From the NCBI GenBank assembly GCA_964513675.1, contig CAZEOD010000005.1:11061-75060 (forward strand): a DNA stretch of 64,000 bases, read 5' to 3'. Within the stretch, counting starts at the first letter, position 1, and every line of letters begins with the position of its first letter. Both the position numbers and the translations under genes were made by a program. Below, piece by piece: positions 37,540 to 62,812 of this stretch. Source of the DNA: an uncultured Caulobacterales bacterium. GTDB lineage: Bacteria; Pseudomonadota; Alphaproteobacteria; Caulobacterales; Maricaulaceae. The notes beneath the pieces are model-generated. The model saw only the letters and a program-made list of their open reading frames with translations. It was not told the origin of the DNA and did not search any database.

Positions 37540-37543
37540 GATC

Positions 37544-37684
37544 TTATGTCCCCGGATCAATCGGTAAAGTCACTGTAACATCCGTTTGGTCTGCATGTTC
37601 AGCCCCGCCTTGCGACATTAACCAAAAATATACACCGCATAACAGAAGACATAAAACGCCAAAGGCGAGCAATAACTTTTTCAT
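37544..37684 (-). CDS. Candidate 46-aa single-TM small protein, below the ORF-track length cutoff
   Basis: Hand translation gives MKKLLLAFGVLCLLLCGVYFWLMSQGGAEHADQTDVTVTLPIDPGT. A GAGGG SD lies 6 nt upstream of the ATG. The stop is 4 nt before the next gene's ATG. Confidence 0.4.
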   Translation of the reverse strand: MKKLLLAFGVLCLLLCGVYFWLMSQGGAEHADQTDVTVTLPIDPGT

Positions 37685-41272: not shown

Positions 41273-41304
41273 AAAAAAAGGGCCCTCCAAAGTCTGGAGA
41301 GCCC
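41273..41304 (-). terminator. Rho-independent terminator of the large TBDR gene
   Basis: The minus strand reads GGGCTCTCCA-GACTT-TGGAGGGCCC followed by TTTTTTT. Confidence 0.8.
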
Positions 41305-41333: not shown

Positions 41334-44300
41334 CTAGAACGTTGCCCGAAGGATCGCTGAGAAACGGCGATCACTACGAATAAACGAGCGTGGCGCGCGC
41401 AGACCATCTTCACGAATGGTTTGCGTTGTTTCAGTGATATCATCCAATAAGTTGACACCTTGCAGGCCAATACGGACATTTTCATTGATGCTATAGAATA
41501 CAGAGGCATCAAGTTGGCCCGTTGCTTCCTGATAGATCGCAGAGAATGGGAAGATCACATCACGTGGCGTCACGAGGAAATCACTCCGCCAGTTATAGGC
41601 AAGTCGACCCTGCCATGGACCTTTTTCATATAAACCAATCGCGTTGATATTATGTTCTGACACACGCGGGAAAATCCCGTCATCAACTGCAAAATTTGGC
41701 CCTGCTGGATTTTGACCGTCACTCGCGGGTCCGACAAATAGGTCCGGATCAACTTCAGACGGAACACCATCTGCATCAATATAGGCATAGTTAAACTGTA
41801 CACCTAGGCCAGATAGAGGTCCCGGTAAGAAGTCATAAAACTGCTGATATGCAAATTCGAAACCTTTTAACTCACCAGTTTCTTGGGAATTAATGCTTGT
41901 ATTAAAGGCTACAGGTAGCCCGCTAATAAGAACATCTCCACCAGCTGGGTCAGGTACATTTAAGGCACCTCCCGTAATGAAGTTATCAATCGTCTTATAA
42001 AAACCAGATAATGTGATAGATCCAGAGTCGTTGAAATACCATTCATAGGATAGATCAAAGTTCCACGCTGTTTGCGGCAGAAGTTGAGCATTACCGGAAA
42101 AGTTACCTATGAAGCCGCCAAATGTATTTGTTCCATCACCATTTTCGATGTCTTGGAATGTACCAATAGCCGGACGTTGATTGATTTGAGCCGTATCAGG
42201 ACGCGACAAGGTACGCGATGCAGCAAAGCGAATTAAACGGCCTTCATTCAGGTCAAGCTTAACGTTCAAGCTCGGAAGCCATTCGTCATAAGTAGTGTTA
42301 ACGGGAACTGTAAGGATGTTACCATCACCAAATTGATTTTGCAGAGCGACCAAATCCAAACTACAGGCCCCGGGAGGTCCATCTAGATCATTAGGGTTGT
42401 TACATGGATCAATCGTCACGCCATTTTGCTCAAATGGTACTGTACCCACGAATAAACCATTAAAGGCCGGTAAGAGCTGAACACTATCAATTGTACGTTC
42501 AGTGCGGACGTAACGAATACCAATGTTACCGTCTAGGCCCACTCCATTCCCGCCGAAATCATCCGTTCCGAAGTCAAGACGTGTATAAGCCGCAAAATTT
42601 TCGCGTGTTAAACTTGTCGTTTCACCTTCGGTAAAGGGAGTTCCCGGAATAATTTGATCGCCATTCGTACATACACGATCAGATAATGGAGAATAGGCCG
42701 CACCGCAGAAAGCACGTGACCCTGTGGGGCCGCCCGTTGCCGCAATTAAATCCCGACGAACTTGCTCAAAAGCATCAAAGTCTCTCGCACCCGGGCCTGT
42801 ATAAGCCAAAATTTGGTCAAATCCGATAGTGCCTTCAAGCCCGCGCTGAAAGCCGTCAAAGTTAACAGGACCAAAAAGTCCATTTACCGCATCATTTAAA
42901 GCAGGGTTCGTATTTCCGCCAAGTAATAAGATAGACTCAACATCGTTAAAGTCATTATTCGTACCAGGCCCGAATGCTGTTCCGTTAATATCGCGGCCTG
43001 TCCAGACTTCGGAGATATTACCCCAGGTAAAGTCAGACTCACGAATATCTGTGTCTTGATCTGAATAACGCACACCTGCGCGAACTGATTTCAACCAGCC
43101 ATCATTGGAAAAGTCATATTCGACATCCCCTTTAAAGGCCAAGGAATCCGCGTCATTAGAGACCCGCTGTTCAGCAAGAGCCCGAATGAACTGACTATTT
43201 GGCTGTGAAAAGAAGTCAGCTGACTCTCCTTCTGGAACAAGAAATTGTACAGTAGGAACTCCGTTCTGCTCTTCACCTATGCGAACACGCGAGAAGAAAG
43301 ATCTAATCACTTCAGTTTGGAAAACTTCATTCGAAGAATCAATATATTGGGCATCAAAATTAAACCTTAAGTTATCCGTTGGCGCATATTTAAGGTTGAA
43401 ACCAAAGTCTTCTGTTGTATCTTCTTCTAGGAAACTACGTGTACTTGCTTGTTGCTGACCACCTTCACTTGGAAGAAGTGCAGCCGTGGCATTCGGGCCG
43501 CGCCACTGCGTGTTATCCGTGATCGTACCTGTTTGGAAAACGCCATCTTCGTCAAACGTAAAGTCAGTTATACCAAATCGGCCATCGCCGCGTGTATTCT
43601 GAGTCCCATCACCTTGCGTCTGAATAACATTTTCGCCCCACTCCAATGTAGAATCAGAGCGTAGGAATTGAGCTGTTGCCAACCATTTTTGATCTGGGCT
43701 TTCCCATTGACCCGCTAAAGCAATACCACGGCGATCCCGCTCAAAATCTTGTCGGCGAATACCGCCGCCTGCTGGAATCAATAAATTTGTATCTAGGCCA
43801 TTATCTGTCGACCCGCCATTTTGGCCCGGACTTTCAAACGCAGCTAATTGCGTACTATCAGCACGTGAAATCAACTCAGACGCAGAGAGATTACCTAAAA
43901 GGCCAAACTTGCCTGCATTTGTTTCCCATGTATTAGAGAGTAAAATAGAACCAGACGGTGTCGCCTTCTCTGCTTTGTCACCATAGTTAAGCTCGAGTGA
44001 ATAAGCAACTTGCGGGCCTTCTTTGTCAAAAGGAACGCGCGTGTTCAAATCAATTGTCCCTGCAATACCGCCTTCAATCAGATCAGCCGATTGGTTTTTG
44101 AAAACCTTAACAGAACCAAGGAGTTCAGGAGAAACATCTTCAAAACCAAGAACGCCGCCTGAATTTGCACCGAAAACATCACGGCCGTTTAGCTCTGAAC
44201 GAACAAATGGCAATCCGCGAATAACAACGCCTGAACCTTCAACCGCAAAATGGTCTGGATCATTTGGCGCAGAGAAACGCAAAACGCTAACACCCGGAAC

Positions 44301-44585
44301 ACGCTGCAAAGCTTCTGAAACTGAGCGGTCAGGAAGCGCGCCAATATCAGAGGCCGTAATCGCGTCGACAAATGTATCAGCGTTACGTTTGATATCTGCG
44401 GCATCAATAATGGACTGGCGAATACCGGTTGCAACGACTTCATCGACAGTTTCGTCAGCGGTTTCAGCATCCTGCGCATAAGCAGGGGCAAGCGTAAATA
44501 AGTTCATAGCAAGTGCCGATGCACCGACCATTAACACTCTTAGGTTTTCTTTTGACGAGATACGTCCTAAACGATTCATAATCAT
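41334..44585 (-). CDS. Large TonB-dependent receptor (1083 aa), carbohydrate-locus type
   Basis: Signal peptide ...APAYAQ, TonB box DEVVATG, plug motifs and a C-terminal ...AILRATF. The operator palindrome lies about 85 nt upstream. Confidence 0.92.
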   Translation of the reverse strand: MIMNRLGRISSKENLRVLMVGASALAMNLFTLAPAYAQDAETADETVDEVVATGIRQSIIDAADIKRNADTFVDAITASDIGALPDRSVSEALQRVPGVSVLRFSAPNDPDHFAVEGSGVVIRGLPFVRSELNGRDVFGANSGGVLGFEDVSPELLGSVKVFKNQSADLIEGGIAGTIDLNTRVPFDKEGPQVAYSLELNYGDKAEKATPSGSILLSNTWETNAGKFGLLGNLSASELISRADSTQLAAFESPGQNGGSTDNGLDTNLLIPAGGGIRRQDFERDRRGIALAGQWESPDQKWLATAQFLRSDSTLEWGENVIQTQGDGTQNTRGDGRFGITDFTFDEDGVFQTGTITDNTQWRGPNATAALLPSEGGQQQASTRSFLEEDTTEDFGFNLKYAPTDNLRFNFDAQYIDSSNEVFQTEVIRSFFSRVRIGEEQNGVPTVQFLVPEGESADFFSQPNSQFIRALAEQRVSNDADSLAFKGDVEYDFSNDGWLKSVRAGVRYSDQDTDIRESDFTWGNISEVWTGRDINGTAFGPGTNNDFNDVESILLLGGNTNPALNDAVNGLFGPVNFDGFQRGLEGTIGFDQILAYTGPGARDFDAFEQVRRDLIAATGGPTGSRAFCGAAYSPLSDRVCTNGDQIIPGTPFTEGETTSLTRENFAAYTRLDFGTDDFGGNGVGLDGNIGIRYVRTERTIDSVQLLPAFNGLFVGTVPFEQNGVTIDPCNNPNDLDGPPGACSLDLVALQNQFGDGNILTVPVNTTYDEWLPSLNVKLDLNEGRLIRFAASRTLSRPDTAQINQRPAIGTFQDIENGDGTNTFGGFIGNFSGNAQLLPQTAWNFDLSYEWYFNDSGSITLSGFYKTIDNFITGGALNVPDPAGGDVLISGLPVAFNTSINSQETGELKGFEFAYQQFYDFLPGPLSGLGVQFNYAYIDADGVPSEVDPDLFVGPASDGQNPAGPNFAVDDGIFPRVSEHNINAIGLYEKGPWQGRLAYNWRSDFLVTPRDVIFPFSAIYQEATGQLDASVFYSINENVRIGLQGVNLLDDITETTQTIREDGLRAPRSFIRSDRRFSAILRATF

Positions 44586-44667: not shown

Positions 44668-44681
44668 TGACAACGTTGTCA
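44668..44681. promoter_or_regulatory. Perfect 14-bp palindrome TGACAACGTTGTCA; predicted LacI-family operator upstream of the TBDR
   Basis: Read directly from the sequence. The central CG and the TG...CA arms are typical of LacI-family operators. Related copies sit at 50654 and 62799, with a half-site at 54529. Confidence 0.65.
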
Positions 44682-44900: not shown

Positions 44901-46412
44901 CTATATTTTTTCAGCCGCACAATGCGTTTTTATAAAGTCCGAATGATGCGGCATAACATCAACAGACTGCGCAACAACATCTTTGATGTAATCAACCCGC
45001 TTCTTAATCGTCTCAATCGGCGCCTTATCTGTCACAGCATTATACCCTTTGGGCGTGACGCCTTGGCCATACATAACCGCGAGCCAGCTTGCGGGGCTAA
45101 ACAAATCCGAATCGGCCTCAAATATGCGGCCCGCTTGTGAGAACTGTTCGATCTTGCGCGTCAAATGAACTGTTTGCGGCAAGGTCTGACAATGCCGCCA
45201 AAACGGCGTATCATCGCGCTGCGTAGCCGAATAATGCAAGACGAGAAAATCGCGAACACGCTCATATTCCAGCGCCGTTTTTTCATTAAAGGCATCGATA
45301 TCCGTTTGCGAAAAGCGTTTATCGGGATAATGAGCCATAAACCGCGCCAAGCTCGTTTGCACAAGATGAATACTTGTCGATTCGAGCGGCTCCATAAAGC
45401 CAGCCGCTAGGCCTAATGAGATCACATTTTTATCCCAGAACTTTTTCCGGCGCCCTGTGGTGAAGCGTAAGAATTTAGGATCTGACAAGGCTGGTCCGTC
45501 CAAATTATCCAGCAAGGTCGTAGCCGCTTCATCGTCACTGATAAATTCGCTGCAATAGACATGGCCATTCCCCGTTCTATGTTGAAGCGGAATACGCCAT
45601 TGCCAGCCCGCCTGACGTGCGGTGGCCTTGGTGTATGGTATGGGCTCCCCCACCTTCTCGCAGCCTACAGCAACTGCGCGGTTGGCCGGAAGCCATTCGC
45701 TCCAATCATGATAGCCCGCCTCAAGTGCGCCCTCGATTAACAGCCCGCGAAAGCCCGAGCAATCAACGAAAAAGTCAGCTGAAAGCGTCTGTCCGCTCTC
45801 AAGCTGTAGGGTTTTCACATGCCCCGTTTCATTATCCAGCCGCACATCGTCAATTCGGCCTTCAAGGCGCGTTACGCCCCGGCTTTCAGCAATACGGCGA
45901 AGAAAGGCCGCATAGCGCCCCGCGTCAAATTGAAACGCATAATTAATCCCTGACAAAGCTGATTGCGGACGGTCATTCAGCGGGCGCATGAATTTACCTT
46001 GCCGGCACGCTTGCACCATAAGTGAGTAATCAAACAAATCCCCCGCAAGGCCACGGCTATTCAAATTTGCCCAATATTGATAAAATGGCAAGACATCGAA
46101 ATCTATGCCAAAATCACCAAAGGGGTGAATATAGCTATGGCCGAGTTTATACCAATCCACAAATTCGATGCCGAGCTTAAAGGTCGCCTGCGTTTCGCGC
46201 ACAAACTCATCTTCATCAACACCCAACATTTGGTTGAACGCAATCAGCGGCGGAATGGTCGCTTCGCCAACGCCAACCGTTCCAATCTCTTCGGATTCAA
46301 CCAAAGTAATTTGCGTATTGGTTCCTTTCAGCAAAGTGCTCAGGGCCGCAGCCGCCATCCATCCCGTCGTGCCGCCGCCTACAATAATAAGGCTCTCTAT
46401 TTTATCTGTCAT
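44901..46412 (-). CDS. Flavin-dependent 'tryptophan halogenase'-family protein (paralog 4)
   Basis: GGGTTGW (GxGxxG), GVGEATIP, FKLGIEF Lys, GWQWRIP (WxWxIP) and FMEPLESTSIH. Confidence 0.85.
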   Translation of the reverse strand: MTDKIESLIIVGGGTTGWMAAAALSTLLKGTNTQITLVESEEIGTVGVGEATIPPLIAFNQMLGVDEDEFVRETQATFKLGIEFVDWYKLGHSYIHPFGDFGIDFDVLPFYQYWANLNSRGLAGDLFDYSLMVQACRQGKFMRPLNDRPQSALSGINYAFQFDAGRYAAFLRRIAESRGVTRLEGRIDDVRLDNETGHVKTLQLESGQTLSADFFVDCSGFRGLLIEGALEAGYHDWSEWLPANRAVAVGCEKVGEPIPYTKATARQAGWQWRIPLQHRTGNGHVYCSEFISDDEAATTLLDNLDGPALSDPKFLRFTTGRRKKFWDKNVISLGLAAGFMEPLESTSIHLVQTSLARFMAHYPDKRFSQTDIDAFNEKTALEYERVRDFLVLHYSATQRDDTPFWRHCQTLPQTVHLTRKIEQFSQAGRIFEADSDLFSPASWLAVMYGQGVTPKGYNAVTDKAPIETIKKRVDYIKDVVAQSVDVMPHHSDFIKTHCAAEKI

Positions 46413-46426
46413 ATTCGGCTCTTGAT

Positions 46427-47959
46427 CTACAGGTGAACAGCGTCAGCTTTGCAAAAGCGGTTCACAAAATCTATGTGGGGCGGCATCACTGTCACAGCTT
46501 TATCAATAACATCTCTCATGTTTTTTAGGCTCTTTGTGATATTATCATCCGTTAAGCCGTGAACGAGCGGGTTATAACCAGACGGCTCAAACCCTTGGCC
46601 AGCAGCTACAGCAAGCCAGCTTGTGACATCAAAAAGCTCGGCATCATATTTAAAGAATCGGCCGCTCCCTGTTAAAAGCTCCATCTTATGGGCCAAACTA
46701 TCCGGCAGTTCCATTTCGCGAACATAATCCCAAAGCGGGCTGTCATCCCGCCGAGTTGCAACATAATGCAGCATTAGGAAATCACGAATATGCTTAAAGT
46801 CATCATGAATAAGACGGTTATATTCGGATTGAACAGCCTCATTCATATCCCGGGATGGAAATAAGGCGACTAATTTTGAAATGCCGGACTGAATCATGTG
46901 AATACTTGTTGATTCAAGCGGCTCCATAAATCCGCCTGACAAGCCAATAGCCACACAATTTTTATTCCATAATTTTTTCCGCCGCCCCGTTACAAAGCGC
47001 AAATGTTTCGGCTCCTTTAAAAGCTCCCCCGTGAGACGCCCGCGAAAATCGGCCTCGGCTTGATCTTCCGATAAATAGTCACTGCAATAAACATAGCCGT
47101 TTCCATCCCGGTGCTGTAGCGGGATTTTCCACTGCCATCCTGCATCATAGGCGGTCGCTGTGGTGAAGGGCGGCGGAGGCTGCGTCCGTGATGTCGTGAC
47201 AGCAACGGCGCGGTCAACAGGTAAATATTTATGCCAGTTCTCATAACCGCTTTTCAGTGCGCCTTCGATTAAAACCCCGCGAAAGCCCGTGCAGTCAATG
47301 AAAAGGTCGGCGGCATATTCACGGCCATCTTTTAAACCAATCTTTTGAATAAATCCTGTCTCGGGATCGAGGTCAACTTTATCGACAATACCTTCTCGGC
47401 GGACAACACCGCGCGCTTCTGCGAAGCCGCGAAGAAATTTGGCATAAAGAACAGCGTCAAAATGAAACGCATAGGCAAGGCGGTTGATAACACTGCCGTG
47501 TTGCGGCTCGGGGCGAATGAATTTACCCGTATGAGCCGCCCGCGCATTTAGCGAGTAATCATCAAGCGGTGCTGTCCCGCCAATATCTTTATGCCGACGC
47601 CAAAAATGATGAAAGTCAATACCCTCTAAATCAAAGCCGTGAACGCCAAAGGGGTGAAAATAACTTTCGCCAATATGGCCCCAATTTTCAAACTCAATAC
47701 CAAGTTTATATGTGCCTTGCGTGGCCTTTAAAAATTCATATTCATCAATCCCGAGGGCCGCGTTGAATTTAGCAATTGCCGGAATTGTCGCCTCGCCTAC
47801 ACCAACAGTTTCAATCTGCTCTGATTCAATTAATGTGACGGATACATCTGTTTTATCAAGATATTTAGAGAGCGCTGCGGCGGACATCCACCCTGCCGTG
47901 CCCCCGCCGACAATCACAACATTACGGACGGGATTCGCCTTTTTCTGTGTCTCACGCAT
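46427..47959 (-). CDS. Flavin-dependent 'tryptophan halogenase'-family protein (paralog 3)
   Basis: GGGTAGW, GVGEATIP, YKLGIEF, GWQWKIP and FMEPLESTSIH. A TAATG overlap joins it to the upstream gene. Confidence 0.85.
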   Translation of the reverse strand: MRETQKKANPVRNVVIVGGGTAGWMSAAALSKYLDKTDVSVTLIESEQIETVGVGEATIPAIAKFNAALGIDEYEFLKATQGTYKLGIEFENWGHIGESYFHPFGVHGFDLEGIDFHHFWRRHKDIGGTAPLDDYSLNARAAHTGKFIRPEPQHGSVINRLAYAFHFDAVLYAKFLRGFAEARGVVRREGIVDKVDLDPETGFIQKIGLKDGREYAADLFIDCTGFRGVLIEGALKSGYENWHKYLPVDRAVAVTTSRTQPPPPFTTATAYDAGWQWKIPLQHRDGNGYVYCSDYLSEDQAEADFRGRLTGELLKEPKHLRFVTGRRKKLWNKNCVAIGLSGGFMEPLESTSIHMIQSGISKLVALFPSRDMNEAVQSEYNRLIHDDFKHIRDFLMLHYVATRRDDSPLWDYVREMELPDSLAHKMELLTGSGRFFKYDAELFDVTSWLAVAAGQGFEPSGYNPLVHGLTDDNITKSLKNMRDVIDKAVTVMPPHIDFVNRFCKADAVHL

Positions 47960-49077
47960 TACATATTTCCTTTCAACGCATTCATCTGCGCGTCAATTTT
48001 TTGGCTTATTTCAGCGAGCCAATGCTGAATATCACTTAGGCGCTCTCGGTCTGCCAATCTGTCATATCCAGCCTGATTAATTCCGCCTGCCCTTAAGGCA
48101 GACATCCATTCTGCTTTGGAAAATATATCATAATCCTCAAAGCTTAGACGCCCACGACTTCGAAATAGTTTAATTTTACGCGCCAAACGCACAGATATAT
48201 CTTCAGCCTTAAAGCCGGCGGAAATTAGCGACGCCATATCATTGATATGAGCCCCTTCTTCAGCCGCAAGGCGGTTATATTCGCGGCACTCGGCAGCGCC
48301 GTAGGATGTATCAGGCCAGAGCGAAAAAAGGCGCTCTATAGCTGACTGCACAACAAATAAAGTGACCCCAGAAAGCTGATTTAAACCCGCAGATTTAGTC
48401 TGCACAGCGACGTAATTCTCAGTCCATATACTCGCCCTCACATCGGCGCGCAAATCAATGATGAGATCAGAGTGAAGCGCATGGCCAGATAGCCTGATTT
48501 CACGCCGCATATTATCGGCAATAGACATATCTATATTATCGCCGCTGTGCAGAGTCAGCGGCGCAGCTGCCTGCGCAATATCGCCTAAAAGCGCTGTATA
48601 TTTAGCTGTATCAAACCGGTAAGCGGGATCAATAGACGGCAAATCTTTAGGCGCCGCACCAAGCGCAATTCCAGCGCTATTCAGCCGCAGCGCGAGGTTA
48701 TAATGCGCGATATCTTTCGCTTGCCCTGCGGTATAAGCGCGGTGCCAATAATGCTGAAAATCACAGCCAGACCGCGCACGCCCATAATCACCCAGCGGCG
48801 CATAGAACATGTCTCCACCGCGCGGAGTATATGGCAGGGCCATAATCATTTCAGCCCCCGCCTTGCGCCGAAGTTCGTCCTCGGTAATTTGCAAGAGCTG
48901 ATGGACATGACGAATATTGGGCCGCGAATAAACAAAGCCCGATACGTCCTCGCCGCTTTGAATAATATCCAGCTTACAGGCACCGCCCGGCAAACGCGCA
49001 CTCATCATAGCCGCGGCCAAACTACACAGCAAAGGCGCGCCAATAATCGTGATATGCCGGATAGGAGCCGCCATCAT
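47959..49077 (-). CDS. Degenerate halogenase-family paralog (372 aa) lacking the FAD and catalytic motifs
   Basis: Collinear similarity to its neighbours (ITIIGAPLLCSLAA vs IVIIGGGTAGWMSAA; YRFDTAKYTALL vs YQFDAIKYAPFL; YNRLAAEE vs YNRLMDLE). GxGxxG, GVGEAT, the Lys and WxWxIP are all absent. The frame is intact and coupled on both sides. Confidence 0.7.
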   Translation of the reverse strand: MMAAPIRHITIIGAPLLCSLAAAMMSARLPGGACKLDIIQSGEDVSGFVYSRPNIRHVHQLLQITEDELRRKAGAEMIMALPYTPRGGDMFYAPLGDYGRARSGCDFQHYWHRAYTAGQAKDIAHYNLALRLNSAGIALGAAPKDLPSIDPAYRFDTAKYTALLGDIAQAAAPLTLHSGDNIDMSIADNMRREIRLSGHALHSDLIIDLRADVRASIWTENYVAVQTKSAGLNQLSGVTLFVVQSAIERLFSLWPDTSYGAAECREYNRLAAEEGAHINDMASLISAGFKAEDISVRLARKIKLFRSRGRLSFEDYDIFSKAEWMSALRAGGINQAGYDRLADRERLSDIQHWLAEISQKIDAQMNALKGNM

Positions 49078-50615
49078 TATACAGCGCTTTGCGCCGCTTT
49101 ATCCAGATGCCGCATATTATGTTTATCAATATAAGCGGCGTGATCCGGCATTTGCGCCGCCGTTTGGGCCATAAGCTGCTTTAAGCCCTTCATATGATTC
49201 ATGATATTATCTTGCGGAATTAAATCAACGCGGCTGTCATAATTTTGCGGCGCAAATCTTTGCCCCATATAAACGGCCACCCAACTGGGTTCTAAAAACA
49301 ATCCAAAATCATATGTAGCAATCCGGCCACGGCGGCGGAACAGCTCCATTTTCTCGGCCAGACTATCTGGAACTTTTGAGGTTCGCATATAGTCCCAAAA
49401 CGGCGTATCATCGCGCTCAGTCGCGTGATAATGCAAAACCAGAAAATCCCGCACGCGCTCAAATTCAAGATCCATCAAGCGGTTATATTCATCGCGGTCA
49501 ATTTCAATGTCTTCATCACGCGGGAAAAGCTCAATAAGTTTGGTGATGCCTTCCTGAATGAGATAAATAGAGGTCGATTCTAGCGGCTCTAAAAACCCGC
49601 CCGATAGCCCTATCGCGACACAGTTTTTATGCCACAATTTTCGCCGCTTACCTGTTGTAAAGCGGAGCTTTCGCGGCGCGGATAAAGGCGCGCCTTCGAG
49701 GTTATCTAAAAGGGATTTTTCGGCTTCATCATCGGAGATAAAATCACTGGCATAAACATGGCCATTACCTGTTCTATGCTGCAAAGGAATACGCCAGCGC
49801 CACCCCGCTTTATCTGCCGTGGCCCGCGTGTAAGGCAGAAGCGGGCCTTCACTTTCACATGGCACAGCGACAGCGCGGTCAACAGGCAGCCATTTCGTCC
49901 ATTTATCATATCCCGTTTCCAAGGCTTTCTCAATTAAAAGACCGTAAAACCCTGTGCAATCAATGAAAAAGTCACCGGCTATTTCCTGCCCATCTTCGAG
50001 CCGAACCGATTGAATATCGCCCTTTTCAGCCGCAAGTTTAACATCAACAACTTTACCTTCAATCCGCGTCACGCCGCGCGCTTCGGCATGCGCCCGCAGA
50101 AAGGGCGCATATTTAATCGCGTCAAATTGATAGGCATAGCGATAGGTCGAATTTACAGAACGCGGATCATCCGACGGCGGCTGAAATTTACCTGCGCGGC
50201 AGGCCATAATCGGCAAGGAATAATCTTGTAAAGACCCAATGCCCGCTTGGGATTGCATCTTATTATAATAGTGATGAAAGGGCACGCCAGCATTGGCGAG
50301 GCCAAATTCACCAAAGGGATGAATATAACTATCCCCAAGGCGGCCCCAATCGACAAATTCAATACCAAGCTTAAAGGTGGCCGAGGTCGCCGCCATAAAC
50401 TCGGCCTCGTCAATTCCAATCGTTTCATTGAAAAACTTAATATGCGGCAAGGTTGCTTCGCCAACCCCAACAACACCAATGGCTTCGGACTCAATCAAGG
50501 TAATATCAAGGCCCAGCCCAGACATCATGCTCGACAATCCTGCGGCACTCATCCATCCGGCTGTCCCGCCGCCTATGATGACAATTTTTTTCAAGGCAAT
50601 TCCCGTTTGACTCAT
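49077..50615 (-). CDS. Flavin-dependent 'tryptophan halogenase'-family protein (paralog 1, first gene of the operon)
   Basis: GGGTAGW, GVGEATLP, FKLGIEF, GWRWRIP and FLEPLESTSIY. Confidence 0.85.
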   Translation of the reverse strand: MSQTGIALKKIVIIGGGTAGWMSAAGLSSMMSGLGLDITLIESEAIGVVGVGEATLPHIKFFNETIGIDEAEFMAATSATFKLGIEFVDWGRLGDSYIHPFGEFGLANAGVPFHHYYNKMQSQAGIGSLQDYSLPIMACRAGKFQPPSDDPRSVNSTYRYAYQFDAIKYAPFLRAHAEARGVTRIEGKVVDVKLAAEKGDIQSVRLEDGQEIAGDFFIDCTGFYGLLIEKALETGYDKWTKWLPVDRAVAVPCESEGPLLPYTRATADKAGWRWRIPLQHRTGNGHVYASDFISDDEAEKSLLDNLEGAPLSAPRKLRFTTGKRRKLWHKNCVAIGLSGGFLEPLESTSIYLIQEGITKLIELFPRDEDIEIDRDEYNRLMDLEFERVRDFLVLHYHATERDDTPFWDYMRTSKVPDSLAEKMELFRRRGRIATYDFGLFLEPSWVAVYMGQRFAPQNYDSRVDLIPQDNIMNHMKGLKQLMAQTAAQMPDHAAYIDKHNMRHLDKAAQSAV

Positions 50616-50653: not shown

Positions 50654-50667
50654 TGACAAGGTTGTCA
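50654..50667. promoter_or_regulatory. Operator variant TGACAAGGTTGTCA (13/14) in the divergent halogenase / DUF6445-like promoter region
   Basis: One central mismatch relative to the 44668 palindrome. It lies 39 nt upstream of the halogenase operon ATG. Confidence 0.55.
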
Positions 50668-50733: not shown

Positions 50734-51423
50734 ATGCCCCCAGATTCTTTTTCATATCATATTGAACATTTCGGGGATGAAAAAGAGCCTGTTATTGTCA
50801 TGGATAATTTTAGCGGGAAGTTAGATTTACTTCTTCGCCATGCGCAATCACAAAAATTTTCGCCCGGCAGCGCCTATTATCCCGGCGTTCAAGCGCAGGC
50901 GGATGTCAATTATTTAACGCTACGCCGCAAAGAGCTTCCGCAAATCATGCGGGATGTTTTTGACATTCAGCACGGCCTTAACATCGAGAGCTGCGTTTAT
51001 GCGCTTGTCACGCGCCCCCCGGAGACACTCACGCCGGGGCAACGTCTACCCCATCATGACGGTAATGAGGGCAATCTTTTTGCGCTACTCCATTACATTC
51101 AAGGCGCAGAAGATGCAGGCACGGCCTTTTATCGTCACCGCCGCACAGGATTTGAAACCGTCACAGAAGAGCGCGCCGAAACTTACCGCGCTGCACTGAA
51201 GGAGGACGCTGCGGAATTTGGGATGCCGCCCGCGCAATATTTTTACGGTGATGACGCACGTTATGAAATGATTGGGGAGATTAAAGCCCGCCCAGACCGC
51301 GCGATTTTATATCGGGGGCGCACGCTACATTCTGGCTGTATTCCACTCGGCACCACCGAGGCGGCCTCAGTTGAAACGGCGCGCATTACGCTCAATACAT
51401 TTATTTGGGACACGGCGGCATGA
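50734..51423 (+). CDS. DUF6445-like protein with a possible Fe(II)/2OG-oxygenase-type HxD...H triad
   Basis: PVIVMDNF near the N-terminus, then LPHHDGN ... RTLHSG ... ARITLN. The start is uncertain (50635, 50680 or 50734). I chose 50734 because the operator lies inside the longer ORF. Confidence 0.55.
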   Translation: MPPDSFSYHIEHFGDEKEPVIVMDNFSGKLDLLLRHAQSQKFSPGSAYYPGVQAQADVNYLTLRRKELPQIMRDVFDIQHGLNIESCVYALVTRPPETLTPGQRLPHHDGNEGNLFALLHYIQGAEDAGTAFYRHRRTGFETVTEERAETYRAALKEDAAEFGMPPAQYFYGDDARYEMIGEIKARPDRAILYRGRTLHSGCIPLGTTEAASVETARITLNTFIWDTAA

Positions 51424-51917
51424 CCCCGCCCCGCTTAATTATTATTTGCGGGGTCTCGGCCTCTGGGAAATCAACAATCGGTAGCGCCCTCGCCGCCGCA
51501 TTATACTGCCCATTTTTGGAAGGGGATGATTACCACCCCCCTGCGAATATCGCGAAAATGGCGAGCGGAACACCGCTTACAGATCATGACCGCGCGGGTT
51601 GGATTGATATGATTTGCGGCGACGTCAACTCATCGCAAGAGCGCACGCTTGTCTTATCCTGCTCCGCACTGACTGATTTCGTCCAAAATAAACTTAAGAC
51701 TGATGTAGTGCGCGATATTATTTGGATAAAACTCATTTTGACGCGCCAAGAGGCCGAGCGGCGGATGAAAGCCCGCGATCATTTTATGCCGCCGGAGCTT
51801 ATGGATAGTCAGTTCGACGCCTGGAATCCGCCCAAAGACGGGCTAGAGATTATAGCGACACAAGAAAAAGCCGCGATCATATCTCAGATCACGGCTTATA
51901 TTTCGCAGTTAGATTAA
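51420..51917 (+). CDS. gntK: Gluconokinase (SKI-family gluconate kinase)
   Basis: P-loop GVSASGKSTIG followed by FLEGDDYHP, typical of GntK. An ATGA overlap joins it to the preceding gene. Confidence 0.8.
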   Translation: MTPPRLIIICGVSASGKSTIGSALAAALYCPFLEGDDYHPPANIAKMASGTPLTDHDRAGWIDMICGDVNSSQERTLVLSCSALTDFVQNKLKTDVVRDIIWIKLILTRQEAERRMKARDHFMPPELMDSQFDAWNPPKDGLEIIATQEKAAIISQITAYISQLD

Positions 51918-51921: not shown

Positions 51922-54474
51922 TTAATTTTCGCAGCGAATACCATCTTTGCTCTCTTCTTTCAGTCGAATTTCGGACAGCCCAACGCTTGTTCCAGCAGGC
52001 GCCTGAAGGGAGAAGGCCTGTTTAAGATCGGCCATAACCGCACCAGCCCCGTCAAAACATTTCAGAGATATCCGTGTCTCACTCCATTCAGGTGTTAAAG
52101 TCACGGGGCGGAATGTTCCGCAGGCCCCTGTTTCAGGACAGCCAACCGCTACGCTCACATCGCCTGATCCATCAATTAATTTACTCATGAAGGAAAGCTC
52201 CATCGCGCCATTTGTTTCGCGCTGATAATCATGACCATAACGCGAAGAGATCGAGAGAATATTTTTCGCCTGTTTGAAGTCAACCCGCAGGCCGTCTTCC
52301 TGGGCTGTATGATCGTAACCGCCTAAGCGAAGACCCGCATTATTAAAGGGCATGGCTTCGATATTTGTGCCATTAACCGCCAAGCGCCAAGGCTGCGGAC
52401 TTGCGCCTTTCTCAAAGAACACGCCTTTTTGACCGCTTACGCCGCCAACGATGCCGCTATCTTCGGAAAGCTCAGCAATAGGCTTTTTATCGCCATAGCT
52501 AAGTCCGTAACCGAGCTTAAACAAAGGCTCATAATCGGCATGATGTGGATTTAGCTTGGTTTGCGTCGCAAGTTTTGGCCATGAAAAAGAGAGCCGGCCT
52601 GTGAAATCATAATCAGGATTTGTCTGGAATAATAAATCAGACACACCGCCGCCTTCTGTTCCCGGAAGGAAAGCCGCAATAAAAGCATCCGAGACATTCA
52701 TTTCAGGGTTCGTCCAGAGCGGCCGGCCCGATAAAAAGACAGAGACAACGGGAATATCCGCATCTTTAAAAGCTTTTAGATTTTGCGGATCAAAATCATT
52801 CGGCGTAAAATCAACATTTTCGCGGTCGCCTTGGAACTCCGCATAAGGGTCTTCGCCGTAAATCGCAATAACAGCATCTGTACCCGCCGGAACCGCCGCG
52901 CCTTCGAGATCAAATGTCACGCGCCCGCCTGCGGCAGTGACCGTGTCCTTGATCGCAGATAAAATAGACTCGCCATTTGGAAACTCATCATTCGTATGAT
53001 TTCCGCCCTGCCAAGACAGCGTCCACCCGCCGGCCATTTTCGCAATATTTTCCGCGCCTTTACCAACAACATGAATATTCTTGCCGGCAGCTAAGGGTAA
53101 GGTTTGATTGTTATTTTTCAGCAATACCATAGATTTACGCACAGATTCGCGCGCAACATCACGATGCGCTTTCGAGCCGAGTAATTCCGTCTTACCCGAG
53201 AATGCACGCTCACTTGGCTTTGGCTTTTCGAAAATACCAGAGTTAATTTTCACCCGTAATATACGGCGCACCGCATCATCAAGGCGCTCCATAGGAATAA
53301 CACCTGATTTCGCATGACCCAATAGAGACTCATATAATCCCTTCCAGCTATCGGGGGCCATATACATATCAAGACCCGCGTTCAGAGCTTGCGGGCAATC
53401 AGTGGCCGTACAGCCCGGTATTAAGGCATGACCATTCCAGTCGCCGACAACGAAGCCTTGAAAATTCATCCGGCCCTTAAGAACATCGGTTAAAAGCTCT
53501 TTTTGGCCATGCATAGGCTGGCCTTTCCATGACGAGAAACTTGCCATCACAGATTGCGCCCCGTCAGCAACCGCCGTCAAGTAACCGGCCAAGTGAATAT
53601 CACGTAGCTCGGCCTCTGTGACCTTGGCGTCACCTTGGTCAACACCGTTTTCAGTCCCGCCGTCCCCAAGGAAATGTTTCGCGCTTGAGATTACTTTTCC
53701 ATCGGCCATGAAACCATCGGTTCCTTTTTCGCCTTGCAGACCGCGAACAATCACGCCGCCGTAAGACTCGACAATCTCAGGGGCCTCGGAGAAGCCTTCA
53801 TATGCGCGTCCCCAGCGGTCATTTTGCGGAACCGCCAAAGTCGGGGCAAAGGTCCAGTCGTGCCCTGATACGCTTAGCTCCGTTGCCGTCACTTCTGCGA
53901 TACGTTTCATGAGGTCAGGATCATTGGCTGCGCCTAGTCCAATATTATGCGGAAAGACAACAGCGCCCGTCAGATTGGCATGGCCGTGAACGGCATCAAT
54001 GCCCCAAACCATGGGAATGGCAATCTCGACACCTTCAGGATCAATTGACGCTGCGAAATATTCATCAGCCGCTTCAATCCATGCATCCGCAGCCGCATAG
54101 GCCAAATCGCCCGGCGCAGAATTACCGCCGCTCAAAACAGAGCCTAATCTATATTGCTTAACCTCTTCGGGCGTCACAGCCCCCGTATCAGCCTGTATAA
54201 CTTGACCAATTTTTTGCTCAAGCGTCATTTTGGCGAGCATATCATCAATCCGCGCTTCAACCGCAGCGTCAAGCGGCGCGGTGCGCACGATTGGCCATGC
54301 CTTTGGATTAATGAGCGCTTTAGTTGCGGCTTGCGGCGCAGCCGCGCTAGCAGCGGCGACATCATCGCTCGCGACATCTTTTTCGAGATCACTAGATGCG
54401 CCGCTACACCCTGCAACAAGCGCAGTTGTAGACAATAAAATCAAGGTGCGTTTTAGCTCTGAGGTCTTCATCAT
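51922..54474 (-). CDS. Periplasmic/lipoprotein GH3 beta-glucosidase (ExoP/BglX-like exo-beta-glucanase, 850 aa)
   Basis: Lipobox LVAGC, GH3 N-terminal domain motifs (GIDAVHG, KHFLGDGGT) and the nucleophile context FVVGDWNG. A C-terminal extension domain is present. Confidence 0.88.
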   Translation of the reverse strand: MMKTSELKRTLILLSTTALVAGCSGASSDLEKDVASDDVAAASAAAPQAATKALINPKAWPIVRTAPLDAAVEARIDDMLAKMTLEQKIGQVIQADTGAVTPEEVKQYRLGSVLSGGNSAPGDLAYAAADAWIEAADEYFAASIDPEGVEIAIPMVWGIDAVHGHANLTGAVVFPHNIGLGAANDPDLMKRIAEVTATELSVSGHDWTFAPTLAVPQNDRWGRAYEGFSEAPEIVESYGGVIVRGLQGEKGTDGFMADGKVISSAKHFLGDGGTENGVDQGDAKVTEAELRDIHLAGYLTAVADGAQSVMASFSSWKGQPMHGQKELLTDVLKGRMNFQGFVVGDWNGHALIPGCTATDCPQALNAGLDMYMAPDSWKGLYESLLGHAKSGVIPMERLDDAVRRILRVKINSGIFEKPKPSERAFSGKTELLGSKAHRDVARESVRKSMVLLKNNNQTLPLAAGKNIHVVGKGAENIAKMAGGWTLSWQGGNHTNDEFPNGESILSAIKDTVTAAGGRVTFDLEGAAVPAGTDAVIAIYGEDPYAEFQGDRENVDFTPNDFDPQNLKAFKDADIPVVSVFLSGRPLWTNPEMNVSDAFIAAFLPGTEGGGVSDLLFQTNPDYDFTGRLSFSWPKLATQTKLNPHHADYEPLFKLGYGLSYGDKKPIAELSEDSGIVGGVSGQKGVFFEKGASPQPWRLAVNGTNIEAMPFNNAGLRLGGYDHTAQEDGLRVDFKQAKNILSISSRYGHDYQRETNGAMELSFMSKLIDGSGDVSVAVGCPETGACGTFRPVTLTPEWSETRISLKCFDGAGAVMADLKQAFSLQAPAGTSVGLSEIRLKEESKDGIRCEN

Positions 54475-54528
54475 TTTCCCTTATGGACTGCCAAATTATG
54501 GTTTTGGCTTTAAGTTTTCATCAAAAAT

Positions 54529-54542
54529 TGACAACGTAAGAC
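54529..54542. promoter_or_regulatory. Degenerate operator TGACAACGTAAGAC (one good half-site) between GH3 and the lactonase operon
   Basis: TGACAACGT matches 9 nt of the consensus and the second arm is poor. It lies 55 nt from the GH3 start and 77 nt from the lactonase start. Confidence 0.35.
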
Positions 54543-54618
54543 AATTAATTCTATAAAAACAAAAAAAGAGCAAGTAAAATCTTGCTCACAGCTAATAACA
54601 GCTATCGGGGATATTGAC

Positions 54619-55629
54619 ATGATTAATCGACGCCACGTCTTAGCCGGGGCCGCCCTTGCGCTGCCATCTTGTCACAAATCGCCGGCCAGCACAGCCGCTA
54701 CGAATCCAGCGCTTGAGGCTTTCTCTCCGCGGTTTTTCGATTTCATCGGAAAAAGCGCGTCCCTAGAGGTTCTAGGCTCTGGTTATGGCTGGTCAGAAGG
54801 CCCGGCATGGGACAAAGCCCGCGGCCAACTTTACTTCACAGACGTTCCCGGAAACACGGCTTATGTTTGGAAAGAGGGCCAAGGCGTTGAGGTATTTCTC
54901 TCTCCGTCTGGCGCCATCGTTGAAGGCTTTCGCGAACCCGGAGCAAATGGACTATTTTACAGCCGCAACGGCCAGTTGATTCTGTGTAATCATGGCAAAC
55001 GCGGCATCGAATCTCTTAATATTGACAGCAAAGCCCGTACCCTTCTGACAATGAGCTATAAAAATAAAGCTTACAACTCACCGAATGATGTCGTTGAGGC
55101 CAGCACGGGTGATCTTTATTTTACCGACCCGCCTTATGGCCTTGAAGGGCTAGACGATTCGCCCCTTAAAGAGCAGGCGCATAACGGCGTTTATCACCTC
55201 AGCAAAAGCGGCGCTGTTAAGCTGATGATCGCAGATTTAACATTTCCCAACGGCGTGGCCTTATCGCCTGATGAACGCTGGCTCTATGTCGCGCAATCAG
55301 ATCCTAAAGCGATGCATATTTACAGACTAGACCTCACAGACCCCAAGGCTGAAAAAGAGCTATTGGTTGATCTTGCGCCTTTTTCAGGGCCAGACCTACC
55401 GGGACTGCCGGACGGCATGGTTATTGACCAAAAAGGCTATCTTTTCGCAACAGGCCCCGGCGGCGTGTTTGTTATCTCGCCAAAGGGTGATGTCTTAGGC
55501 CGCATTAAAACCGGCAAAGGCAGCGCGAATTGTACCTTTGGAGAAGACGGCTCAACATTATTTATTACCAATCATGACCGGCTCGTAAAAATCCCGACTC
55601 TAACGCGGGGCCTCGCATGGGGATCATAA
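54619..55629 (+). CDS. SMP-30/gluconolactonase/LRE family protein, exported
   Basis: GGGGA SD and an N-terminal RRHVLAGAALALPSC (Tat-like lipoprotein signal). Six-bladed propeller motifs are present (EGPAWD, PNDVV, PDGMVID). Confidence 0.85.
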   Translation: MINRRHVLAGAALALPSCHKSPASTAATNPALEAFSPRFFDFIGKSASLEVLGSGYGWSEGPAWDKARGQLYFTDVPGNTAYVWKEGQGVEVFLSPSGAIVEGFREPGANGLFYSRNGQLILCNHGKRGIESLNIDSKARTLLTMSYKNKAYNSPNDVVEASTGDLYFTDPPYGLEGLDDSPLKEQAHNGVYHLSKSGAVKLMIADLTFPNGVALSPDERWLYVAQSDPKAMHIYRLDLTDPKAEKELLVDLAPFSGPDLPGLPDGMVIDQKGYLFATGPGGVFVISPKGDVLGRIKTGKGSANCTFGEDGSTLFITNHDRLVKIPTLTRGLAWGS

Positions 55630-56984: not shown

Positions 56985-56986
56985 AT

Positions 56987-62030: not shown

Positions 62031-62032
62031 AT

Positions 62033-62611
62033 CTATGTCGCCCACGTCCGTCCAATTTCAGTCAAATCCACACAGCCTTTCCAATCACCGGGGACAGGCT
62101 CATATCGAAGCTCCTCCGATGCGCCCGGCTCTGACATATAATAGGCCGTCGCGACTGTCGATTTCATATCGGTGTAAAACCCGTCTTTTGTCTTTCCGCT
62201 AAAAACATCAAGATCATATGCGGCTAAAATATCATGCTGCTCTGCGCTATTTTGCTCAGCAAATACGCCGCCTGATTTCGCATCTAATTTTGCAGCAAGC
62301 GCGTTTAATCCTTTGCGCCAATAGCCCTTATAATTATCATCGCCCCACTCAGAAACCAGGCTAGCAATTACGGCGGGCACTCCGGCCTCAACCGCGCCGG
62401 CGGTCTCTGTTTGCGGAATAATCGTTTCAGCAACGGCACTCAGAAAAGCAAATTCGCTGGCCGTGAAAAATGCGGCGCTGCTCGCGTCAATAGCGGGTAA
62501 ATCTTTAGCGCCAGTCTCGCGGCTCGCCTTGCATGACGATAGCGCGCCCACCGCAGAAATAGCCAAGAGCGCTTTAATCGCCTCTCGCTTTGTAACATGT
62601 GCCTTACGCAT
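62033..62611 (-). CDS. Gluconate 2-dehydrogenase subunit-3-family small subunit with an export signal
   Basis: 192 aa. The N-terminal KREAIKALLAISAVGALSSC is a Tat-like lipoprotein signal. It is the first gene of the three-gene operon. Confidence 0.7.
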   Translation of the reverse strand: MRKAHVTKREAIKALLAISAVGALSSCKASRETGAKDLPAIDASSAAFFTASEFAFLSAVAETIIPQTETAGAVEAGVPAVIASLVSEWGDDNYKGYWRKGLNALAAKLDAKSGGVFAEQNSAEQHDILAAYDLDVFSGKTKDGFYTDMKSTVATAYYMSEPGASEELRYEPVPGDWKGCVDLTEIGRTWAT

Positions 62612-62798: not shown

Positions 62799-62812
62799 TG
62801 ACATCGTTGTCA
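62799..62812. promoter_or_regulatory. Operator variant TGACATCGTTGTCA (13/14) between the GMC operon and the cupin gene
   Basis: One mismatch relative to the 44668 palindrome. It lies 50 nt upstream of the cupin ATG. Confidence 0.55.

Follow-up and report, generated by a model that had tools for sequence, protein, structure and literature searches.

Among the closest described relatives of the genes analysed here are BrvH and Xcc4156, two flavin-dependent halogenases which brominate free indole, refuse tryptophan and have open active sites (PMC5945002, PMC7336383). Their native substrates are given as unknown, and in both cases the authors propose peptide substrates, with MibH as the analogy (PMC5945002, PMC7336383); the specific activity of BrvH on indole is low (PMC5945002). 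For halogenase genes that neighbour a TonB-dependent receptor (TBDR), the only functional proposal in the literature within our reach is an in-silico prediction from 2010, in which Iyer et al. described alpha- and gammaproteobacterial neighbourhoods with JmjC or classical 2-oxoglutarate (2OG) oxygenases, SapC, one to three halogenase homologs and a TonB receptor, and predicted a halogenated siderophore-like product (PMC2938197). In Colwellia, a TBDR-adjacent halogenase is upregulated together with the TBDR (bioRxiv 10.1101/2020.09.28.317438). On the sugar side, the Bgl system of Shewanella comprises the LacI regulator BglR, the GPH transporter BglT and the TonB-dependent transporter (TBDT) OmpBgl (PMC2996990). 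Here we analyse a stretch of 64,000 nucleotides (nt) from an uncultured Caulobacterales bacterium (assembly GCA_964513675.1, contig CAZEOD010000005.1, positions 11,061 to 75,060; hereafter the window), in which four halogenase-family genes, named H1 to H4, lie in a row beside a TBDR gene and genes of sugar catabolism.

The halogenase array and its intact members

All four genes lie head to tail on the minus strand, with H1 (49077-50615, 512 amino acids (aa)) in the first position, followed by H2 (47959-49077, 372 aa), H3 (46427-47959, 510 aa) and H4 (44901-46412, 503 aa). H1, H3 and H4 match the Pfam family PF04820 over their full length with E-values of about 1e-186 to 1e-192 (3e-190, 5e-186 and 6e-192, respectively), and H2 matches it in two pieces (E = 4e-32). 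Read directly in the sequence, the H1/H2 and H2/H3 junctions are gtaTAATGatg and atgTAATGcgt, TAATG overlaps by which H2 shares 1 nt with either neighbour, and the TAG of H3 is separated from the ATG of H4 by 14 nt (atcaagagccgaat). A first-pass annotation of this DNA had reported four such head-to-tail open reading frames (ORFs) with two 1-nt TAATG overlaps, one 14-nt gap and a 1083-aa TBDR gene downstream of them; every coordinate holds, all three junctions were recovered, and the TBDR gene was found at 41334-44585 (minus strand), 315 nt after H4. Because of the overlaps and the single upstream promoter region, H1-H2-H3-H4 probably constitute one operon.

It needs to be mentioned that public gene calls for H1 and its orthologs disagree about the start, giving 483 or 482 aa instead of 512 aa. 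The shorter calls begin past the GxGxxG motif and would give H1 the look of a protein without flavin adenine dinucleotide (FAD), while the ATG at 50615 retains this motif. Several H1 orthologs have no in-frame upstream ATG, and therefore GTG or TTG starts are probable.

The motifs GGGT[AT]GW, GVGEAT, FKLGIEF, W[QR]W[RK]IP and EPLESTSI are present in H1, H3 and H4, just as the earlier annotation had it when it stated that three paralogs keep every halogenase hallmark, and none of these motifs occurs in H2. Within the ortholog groups of H1, H3 and H4 (8 orthologs each, from at least 4 named alphaproteobacterial lineages) every catalytic motif is invariant, with WxWxIP taking the form GW[QRS]W[RKH]IP over the orthologs and reading WRWRIP, WQWKIP and WQWRIP in the window. 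The catalytic Lys (PrnA K79, BrvH K83) and Glu (PrnA E346, BrvH E349), whose numbering was mapped from PMC5945002, as well as the halide-site Thr-Ser, are kept in all three proteins.

The first-pass annotation had proposed a placement against characterised halogenases; H1, H3 and H4 are closest to 9luq, Xcc4156 and BrvH, and much further from PrnA and RebH. They align end to end with the structures 9luq, Xcc4156 (6y1w) and BrvH (6frl) at 449-501 bits, H1 scoring 486, 477 and 449 bits, H3 487, 465 and 485 bits, and H4 501, 488 and 459 bits, respectively, and they are 44-48% identical over their full length to the gammaproteobacterial 9luq and Xcc4156. The true tryptophan halogenases (PrnA, RebH, PyrH, Thal and others) reach 250-310 bits against the three proteins (255-268 bits for PrnA/RebH against H1). 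No C-terminal tryptophan-binding module was found in H1, H3 or H4: most alignments of the three with PrnA and RebH break off at residues 407-434 of about 505-512, ahead of the loop to which the amino-acid part of tryptophan binds. Likewise, the tryptophan-halogenase motifs ATFSxx/HPFE[QR] with QGxxQ and YYHG are absent from the three, whose motifs are instead of the group C type (AT[IL]Pxx, HPFG), namely ATLPHI/HPFGE in H1, ATIPAI/HPFGV in H3 and ATIPPL/HPFGD in H4. Group C, which comprises BrvH, the Xcc enzymes and marine-sediment halogenases, is tabulated in PMC8269204 as having ATIPxx and HPFGx and neither the Trp3 nor the Trp4 motif. LFxxxSW and HPFG are conserved in all three ortholog groups, and each group has a pocket signature of its own (TLPHI[KR].F and GLFLxPSW for H1, TIPAIxKF and ELFDVTSW for H3, TIPP[LI]I.F and DLFSTASW for H4), which points to stable sub-functionalisation.

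As judged from their sequences, H1, H3 and H4 are competent flavin-dependent halogenases of the indole/brominase-type clade of BrvH, Xcc4156 and 9luq, and they stand outside the strict tryptophan halogenases of the PrnA/RebH type. The earlier description of the genes as belonging to a 'tryptophan halogenase' family is thus correct as far as family membership (PF04820) is concerned, and incorrect if the strict tryptophan type is meant, given the BrvH/Xcc4156 clade and the absent tryptophan-binding module. The family name is misleading here, because BrvH and Xcc4156 brominate indole and reject tryptophan.

The order H1-H2-H3-H4-TBDR is held, across at least four orders, in seven other alphaproteobacterial genomes or metagenome contigs, with each gene matching its positional counterpart best, so that chance is of no concern. 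These are a Caulobacterales metagenome-assembled genome (MAG; loci L001/L004), Botany Bay metagenome contigs (L002/L003), a Maricaulaceae MAG (L005), an uncultured Kordiimonas (L006), a Hyphomonadaceae MAG (L012), Erythrobacter longus (L014; GCA_000715015.1) and GCA_947501885.1 (L015). The window derives from a metagenome assembly. Its closest named relatives are MAGs of Caulobacterales and Maricaulaceae, and proteins identical to those of the window were found on contigs of ENA ERZ23495648 and JGI 3300039179. Wherever the genes were called, H2 overlaps H1 and H3 by 1 or 4 nt, with the exception of a 2-nt H1-H2 gap in L002 and L003.

The window proteins are identical to their orthologs to the extent of 68-86% for H1, 61-84% for H3, 62-85% for H4 and 27-59% for H2, and of 51-81% for the TBDR and 34-76% for the LacI-family protein encoded nearby. 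The intact halogenases are therefore at least as conserved as the TBDR and more conserved than the LacI-family protein in each locus where both were found; if the flanking housekeeping CNNM gene is set aside, H1, H3 and H4 are the most conserved protein-coding genes of the locus. Their mutual identity is 47-52%, about the same distance as that to 9luq and Xcc4156, which indicates that the paralogy is ancient. A recent tandem duplication of the array was considered and ruled out, as the paralogs are 47-52% identical and the positional orthologs 61-86%.

H2 and other degenerate partners

H2 aligns to halogenases at its two ends only. At the position of GGGTAGW it has GAPLLCS, the GVGEAT motif is lost, EPLESTS is absent, and the whole segment bearing WxWxIP is deleted; the position of the catalytic Lys is occupied by I in the window protein and by V, I, L or F in its orthologs. 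However, H2 is not what one would expect of a gene in the process of being lost. Its orthologs, all 345-399 aa long, occupy the same array position in every related locus (8 loci), and they conserve motifs of their own (RPNIRHVHQLLQITE, GCDFQHYW, EYNRL, RKIxLFxSRGR and EDYDIFSKAEW). A profile of H2 searched against 1.84 billion cluster representatives gave 38 matches at E<1e-30, nearly all of about 310-400 aa, each of them representing a 50%-identity cluster. Among the short family members that were checked, one has a GxGxxG-like string and none has GEAT, WxWxIP or EPLEST. A narrower alignment of the H2 family, used in a metagenome scan, retrieved a single 2.4-kb contig. The AlphaFold2 (AF2) model of H2 has a mean confidence score (pLDDT) of 64, keeps the N-terminal beta-alpha-beta unit and gives a template-modelling (TM) score of about 0.55 to halogenase folds.

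H2 is thus a conserved, catalytically dead halogenase paralog. The possibility that it is a fresh pseudogene or an assembly artefact was ruled out by the same length and position in 8 loci and by the invariant motifs of its own. The earlier annotation had counted it as the fourth gene of the array, which is right with respect to the family (PF04820, 4e-32), and not right if it is taken for a mere weaker copy of its neighbours.

Dead partners are not restricted to the orthologous arrays. Pairs of an intact and a degenerate halogenase gene, with overlapping genes, were found in four further independent loci, of which two are visibly sugar loci. One is a beta-galactoside locus (glycoside hydrolase family GH35, 2-dehydro-3-deoxygalactonokinase, aldolase, GntR) with three halogenase genes, the middle one degenerate, a gene for a DUF6445 protein and a TBDR gene; an esterase/dienelactone-hydrolase-like gene is located there as well. 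In the second, L016, the TBDR gene is divergent to a row of intact halogenase, degenerate halogenase, intact halogenase, GH9, intact halogenase and GH2. L018 has intact, degenerate and intact halogenases with 4-nt overlaps, and L019 an intact/degenerate pair followed by a gene resembling those of short-chain dehydrogenases/reductases (SDR), on a contig of only 3.7 kb. These four loci make an intact halogenase with a translationally coupled degenerate partner a recurrent unit, and the generality of the dead partner is based on the 8 orthologous loci, the 4 others and the size of the family.

Apart from this, it was observed that in L016 (3466-13327, an unrelated metagenome contig) the GH9 (cellulase) and GH2 genes stand within the run of four halogenase-family genes by the TBDR gene, and because of this interleaving glycoside hydrolases and halogenases appear to share one operon there.

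An array in which one of four genes is devoid of any catalytic motif, and whose pathway partner genes are absent, might also be regarded as baggage, either in decay or without a function, that merely travels with the TBDR gene. Yet H1, H3 and H4 show the top conservation at the locus apart from the CNNM gene, and H2 has kept its length, position and own motifs over eight loci, in a family that spans dozens of 50%-identity clusters. The conservation data effectively refute the idea of baggage, and we give it almost no credence.

What, then, could a dead halogenase do? Flavin-dependent halogenases are usually dimers. We infer that H2 is a partner subunit, either structural or substrate-presenting, in a hetero-oligomer with the active paralogs, since it overlaps both of its neighbours and is always second in order.

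Predicted operator, predicted oxygenase and sugar genes around the array

A perfect 14-bp palindrome, TGACAACGTTGTCA, is located at 44668-44681 before the TBDR gene, directly downstream of a promoter-like -35/-10 pair (44713-44685), and is predicted to be a LacI-family operator. Two further sites differ from it by one mismatch: one at 50654-50667, in the divergent promoter region between H1 and the DUF6445 gene, and one at 62799-62812, between the G2DH3-GMC-TIM operon described below and a cupin lipoprotein gene. Three copies at one mismatch or less were thus observed in the window, versus 0.01 expected by chance. In the H4-TBDR spacer such a site is found in 8/8 alphaproteobacterial loci, and the site upstream of H1 is conserved in L001, L002, L005 and L012 and weaker (3 mismatches) in L006 and L015. 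The palindromes support the earlier suggestion that the array stands under a sugar-type operator, with the operator itself being predicted from sequence, and a LacI-family repressor is predicted to control the halogenase set.

The DUF6445 gene (50734-51423, plus strand) is divergent from H1 and encodes 229 aa from the ATG at 50734 (PF20043, E = 3e-64). Its sequence gave no match in the PDB. The AF2 model has a pLDDT of 95, and Foldseek relates it, at E about 1e-5, to PhyH-like Fe/2OG enzymes (SnoN, PtlH, OkaE, HygX, PHYHD1); the triad H107-x-D109...H199 is invariant in 31 homologs. On account of this predicted fold and metal triad, which are the sole grounds of the identification, we predict DUF6445 to be a cytoplasmic Fe(II)/2-oxoglutarate dioxygenase. 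The gene lies beside the array in 5/7 other orthologous loci (L005 and L014 being those without it), in addition to the galactoside locus.

DUF6445 genes were also seen without halogenases, in L011 (9001-9708) and L013 (9001-9702). In Aurantiacibacter spongiae the gene precedes that of an unannotated 849-aa protein, and in another genome it follows the gene of a Rieske ring-hydroxylating oxygenase alpha subunit. Its occurrence beyond halogenase loci makes DUF6445 a frequent rather than an obligate partner, and its substrate may be an aromatic compound in general.

The TBDR has Plug and beta-barrel domains, a signal peptide and a TonB box, and it matches TIGR01782 ('TonB-Xanth-Caul') with 604 bits at a cutoff of 310. 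Its gene stands downstream of H4 in 8/8 orthologous loci, and a terminator-like hairpin is located at its 3' side (41280-41304). In the 315-nt spacer between H4 and the TBDR gene, which is about 140 nt long in E. longus (L014), we looked for a precursor of the type of ribosomally synthesised and post-translationally modified peptides, and only short, unconvincing ORFs were seen; the idea of such a precursor was dropped.

The constant presence of this receptor raises the question whether it might be the substrate itself. One may imagine that the halogenases, prior to export and still in the cytoplasm, act on aromatic residues of the co-regulated TBDR or of a different envelope protein, with H2 as a polypeptide adaptor. 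A dead paralog would fit the role of a substrate-binding subunit, the TBDR gene has its own operator copy in 8/8 loci, and halogenase arrays pair with a TBDR whatever the sugar of the locus (PMC2938197); moreover, the active sites of BrvH and Xcc4156 are open and solvent-exposed, and peptides were suggested for them by the analogy to MibH (PMC5945002, PMC7336383). On the other hand, the TBDR has at its N-terminus only an ordinary signal peptide and a TonB box, and the related Bgl loci of Shewanella work with a TBDR, no halogenase being mentioned in the main text of PMC2996990. The intact/degenerate pair of L019 is followed by the SDR-like gene, although that 3.7-kb contig is short. We consider a protein substrate of this kind unlikely, and we know of no report of a halogenated TBDR.

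On the other side of the array, the DUF6445 gene overlaps at its end with the gene of a P-loop kinase (51405-51917, plus strand; weak AAA_33/SKI matches, P-loop GVSASGKST), which is kept after DUF6445 in L001 and L002 and which, from motif and context, is probably a gluconokinase. It is followed by a gene for a GH3 beta-glucosidase (51922-54474, minus strand; GH3 N- and C-terminal domains, Exop_C), with a lipoprotein signal in its N-terminus (...LVAGCSG), and by an operon (54619-59402, plus strand; Pfam/TIGR matches) encoding an SGL gluconolactonase with a lipoprotein-like N-terminus of the twin-arginine translocation (TAT) type, a GntP permease, a GPH glycoside symporter and a LacI regulator. 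This SGL-GntP-GPH-LacI set is syntenic in L001, L002 and L012. Next comes an operon (59437-62611, minus strand; Pfam) for a periplasmic sugar dehydrogenase system, which consists of a G2DH3 small subunit (Gluconate_2-dh3, TAT/lipoprotein), a GMC flavoprotein and a TIM-barrel protein, and, divergent from it, the cupin lipoprotein gene (62862-63344, plus strand; Pfam). The GMC protein is similar (E about 1e-35) to large subunits of FAD-glucose and of fructose dehydrogenases, and the TIM-barrel protein, which is xylose-isomerase-like and periplasmic, matches 8tcd, 8tcs and 8bvk. The small subunit and the TIM-barrel protein carry signal peptides. C1 of glucose could be the site of oxidation by this system, or else C3 of glycosides, leading to their oxidative cleavage; the trio is found beside the array also in L006 (Kordiimonas), L012 (Hyphomonadaceae MAG) and L014 (E. 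longus). The operon was observed to be without a cytochrome subunit.

TBDR, GH3, GPH, GntP and LacI genes together with a palindrome at three promoter regions make this a TBDR-centred carbohydrate locus. The previous statement that the neighbours are all beta-glucoside and gluconate genes applies to most of them (GH3, gluconolactonase, GntP, GPH, LacI and the gluconokinase-like kinase), and does not apply to DUF6445. Signal peptides are absent from the halogenases, DUF6445 and the kinase, and present in GH3, the lactonase and parts of the dehydrogenase. In the pathway that we propose, the TBDR would import beta-glucan oligosaccharides and GH3 would hydrolyse them in the periplasm, where glucose would be oxidised and the lactone hydrolysed; gluconate would then enter via GntP and be phosphorylated by the gluconokinase-like enzyme, while the GPH symporter may import glycosides. 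Read in this way, periplasmic oxidation accounts for the gluconate genes without the halogenases.

This has a bearing on the idea that the halogenases take part in sugar oxidation themselves, with hypohalite or flavin hydroperoxide oxidising a carbohydrate, e.g. an aldose at C1 to the aldonolactone, and so feeding the lactonase and gluconate (or galactonate) branch. Hypobromite oxidation of aldoses is established chemistry, bromine water giving the aldonolactone. The array always lies within glycan loci bearing aldonate-pathway genes (lactonase, GntP and the gluconokinase-like kinase here; 2-dehydro-3-deoxygalactonokinase, aldolase and the esterase/dienelactone-hydrolase-like gene in the galactoside locus), and in L016 GH9 and GH2 are interleaved with the halogenase genes. 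However, the halogenases belong to the cytoplasm, and the periplasm is the place of the lactonase, of GH3 and of a dedicated GMC dehydrogenase able to supply the lactone; reduced flavin and O2 would have to be spent where an ordinary dehydrogenase yields reducing power; and the strict conservation of WxWxIP, of the catalytic Lys and of the residues in contact with the aromatic ring (HPFG, LF...SW) is what one would expect for aromatic substrates. We thus regard sugar oxidation by the halogenases as very improbable.

A different account would follow the prediction of Iyer et al., with the halogenases and the 2OG oxygenase tailoring an amino-acid-derived, siderophore-like secreted compound which the TBDR re-imports. 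A similar neighbourhood has been described with just this predicted role (PMC2938197), an Fe/2OG oxygenase is present in the form of DUF6445, and three distinct active halogenases could serve successive ring positions. Nevertheless, the TBDR gene has its operator in common with the halogenases and the sugar dehydrogenase operon, and it is surrounded by genes for GH3, GPH, the lactonase and gluconate use. The TBDR belongs to TIGR01782, a subfamily whose characterised members are known as importers of carbohydrates. Pfam scans, which covered the ORFs of at least 150 aa in the 64-kb window except a few inside larger annotated genes, gave no match to JmjC/cupin_8 or SapC; nor does the window contain an NRPS (non-ribosomal peptide synthetase), another scaffold enzyme or an exporter, and no iron/Fur-type signal is present at the locus. 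The lack of JmjC and SapC and the sugar context argue against a siderophore, and a re-imported metabolite seems to us quite unlikely, slightly more so than a protein substrate.

Several observations concern the rest of the window. A tryptophan synthase alpha gene without an adjacent trpB is located at 11572-12405 (minus strand), 33 kb from the array, and a Fur/Zur-like regulator and small membrane proteins are encoded in the 1.5 kb upstream of it. TrpA on its own turns indole-3-glycerol phosphate into indole, which is, to our knowledge, the sole in-vitro substrate of the BrvH/Xcc4156 clade. The region 12682-23002 is an apparent zinc uptake cluster (Fur/Zur-like regulator, ZrgA, DUF3299 and two ATP-binding cassette systems with DUF3526 permeases) and includes a second TBDR, of 722 aa, which has no halogenase neighbours. 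Finally, an ORF of 549 aa with a TTG start and no Pfam match (35911-37560, minus strand) shares 1 nt with the start of a gene for a tyrosine recombinase of the XerC/D type (34946-35911), and stands just outside the conserved aroK-aroB-CNNM block which borders the sugar locus.

Proposed role and comparison with described systems

The reading we favour, though only tentatively and at somewhat less than an even chance, is that the operon encodes a sugar-induced, cytoplasmic and probably hetero-oligomeric halogenase set acting on an electron-rich aromatic compound, with H2 as a non-catalytic member and DUF6445 as a probably co-acting hydroxylase. The halogenases would be made while the cell imports beta-glucan oligosaccharides and turns them into gluconate by way of glucose oxidation in the periplasm. 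Three active, non-redundant paralogs (H1, H3 and H4) would each take FADH2 from a housekeeping flavin reductase and form a flavin hydroperoxide with O2, which would convert bromide or chloride, bromide being probable in seawater, to hypohalous acid. WxWxIP would hold the substrate away from the flavin, so that hypohalous acid would travel to the Lys/Glu pair and halogenate the aromatic ring there. For this proposed chemistry, the invariant catalytic residues and the two assayed homologs, BrvH and Xcc4156, provide good support. Since the pocket is open, as in BrvH and Xcc4156, and lacks the closed form that binds tryptophan, the set probably acts on a small molecule resembling indole or phenol, or on an aromatic residue within a peptide, rather than on free tryptophan; the co-regulated DUF6445 oxygenase would probably modify the same substrate. 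The enzymatic activity, the regulator that binds the operator and the sugar that acts as inducer are all presumed in this proposal.

A number of points weigh against it. The hetero-oligomer is deduced entirely from gene order and overlaps, and the model of H2 is weak over the C-terminal third of the protein. The LacI-family protein at 58368-59402 is the putative binder of the palindrome through its position only. In the divergent region between the GH3 and gluconolactonase genes (54475-54618) just the right half-site, ACGTTGTCA, is found, and for this reason the GH3/lactonase operon of the window is not claimed for the same operator. (The Hyphomonadaceae locus has the full palindrome at the equivalent place, L012 17639-17652; the GH3 and lactonase operons may not be controlled alike in every genome.) As the first-pass annotation had claimed, no NRPS, polyketide synthase (PKS) or flavin reductase was detected in the 64-kb window by the Pfam scans of ORFs of at least 150 aa; a core scaffold enzyme and a dedicated flavin reductase, by which a secondary-metabolite cluster would be recognised, are both missing from the 64 kb. 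Because BrvH works so poorly on indole, the bromination of indole in vitro is perhaps a poor guide to the native reaction. Finally, a small-molecule role leaves unexplained why such sets are paired with TBDRs of different sugar specificities (glucoside, galactoside, GH9/GH2), and it is this pairing that keeps protein substrates, carbohydrate oxidation and metabolite re-uptake alive as models.

One bolder idea would take the pairing at face value. Halogenation could be an integral, sugar-induced part of TonB-dependent glycan foraging rather than of natural-product synthesis, with the dead paralog organising the three active subunits into an obligate hetero-oligomer that acts on the receptor polypeptide, on the imported glycan or on an aromatic compound entering with it. 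We think it rather doubtful that all this is correct; if true, it would explain the arrays beside TBDRs of many sugar specificities. A role in glycan uptake would mean that marine carbon turnover includes an unexpected kind of chemistry, and an induced brominated metabolite, if that is what the set makes, would link feeding to chemical defence.

The general association of halogenases with TBDRs is already known, and so is the question it raises: the first-pass annotation had called the role of TBDR-linked halogenases unresolved, in agreement with the statements on the native substrates of BrvH and Xcc4156 (PMC5945002, PMC7336383). Our literature search on halogenases with TBDRs, laminarin, polysaccharide utilisation loci or glucosidases found nothing useful, and no relevant paper was found on DUF6445 or on the PDB entries 9LUQ, 9LTB and 9LU2; a sponge-microbiome preprint of 2026 mentions TBDTs within AMP-ligase clusters only. 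What we did not meet in the reachable literature is the ancient, fixed module of intact, dead, intact and intact halogenase followed by a TBDR, the recurrent dead partner, the shared operator, the proposed Fe/2OG identity of DUF6445, and the fact that Erythrobacter longus, a species which can be cultivated, has the module.

Halogenase-family genes by TBDRs are very common in marine and plant-associated Proteobacteria (at least 8000 halogenase homologs were counted at E<1e-20). They are routinely annotated as 'tryptophan halogenase' and, in surveys of genomes and metagenomes, tallied as a potential for halogenation or natural products, and the few enzymes of the clade that were tested in isolation are sluggish. 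Our results suggest that such genes come as a set of ancient origin and fixed composition, with three members active and one dead, which shares a predicted sugar-repressor site with a transporter gene and has an Fe/2OG oxygenase alongside; this shifts the attack on the problem from single enzymes to the whole set.

Among the described systems, BrvH (Brevundimonas sp. BAL3; 6frl) has GxGxxG, the Lys, WxWxIP and Glu-Ser-Thr-Ser in common with H1, H3 and H4, as well as the group C motifs ATIPxx/HPFG and a short loop in place of the tryptophan-binding loop. It is likewise alphaproteobacterial, and a second halogenase gene adjoins brvH (PMC5945002). However, BrvH was studied singly, whereas the window has a fixed four-gene set with a dead member, a predicted sugar operator and a TBDR context. 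Xcc4156 (Xanthomonas campestris pv. campestris B100; 6y1w), which is in the top class of PDB matches, brominates indoles and not tryptophan (PMC7336383). Both it and 9luq, a 'tryptophan halogenase' of Pseudoalteromonas sp. L11, are gammaproteobacterial and were characterised in isolation, with no degenerate partner described. With PrnA, RebH, PyrH and Thal, the window set shares the FAD-binding 'box' fold, the catalytic Lys and Glu, WxWxIP and the presumed hypohalous-acid mechanism. In contrast to H1, H3 and H4, these enzymes have the Trp3/Trp4 amino-acid-binding motifs, and they are encoded in biosynthetic clusters that as a rule include a flavin reductase gene, unlike the array.

The locus can be called a variant of the neighbourhood of Iyer et al. 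(2010), which resembles it in having several halogenase homologs by a TonB receptor and a classical Fe/2OG oxygenase alongside. The neighbourhood of 2010 differs in its JmjC and SapC genes, since only its optional second classical 2OG oxygenase has a counterpart in the window (DUF6445), and in the halogenases themselves, which are one to three in number with intact Rossmann folds and Lys, and four in the window, one of them dead. Moreover, the context and operator of the window point to sugar foraging, unlike the siderophore-like metabolite predicted there. The Bgl system of Shewanella follows the same logic as our locus, with LacI-family repressor sites before the TBDT gene and divergent catabolic operons (PMC2996990), and both have a GPH-family inner-membrane transporter and secreted beta-glucosidases. 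Halogenase genes are not mentioned in the main text of PMC2996990, and what the window locus has beyond Shewanella Bgl is the module of halogenases and DUF6445, together with the proposed route by which gluconate arises through oxidation in the periplasm.

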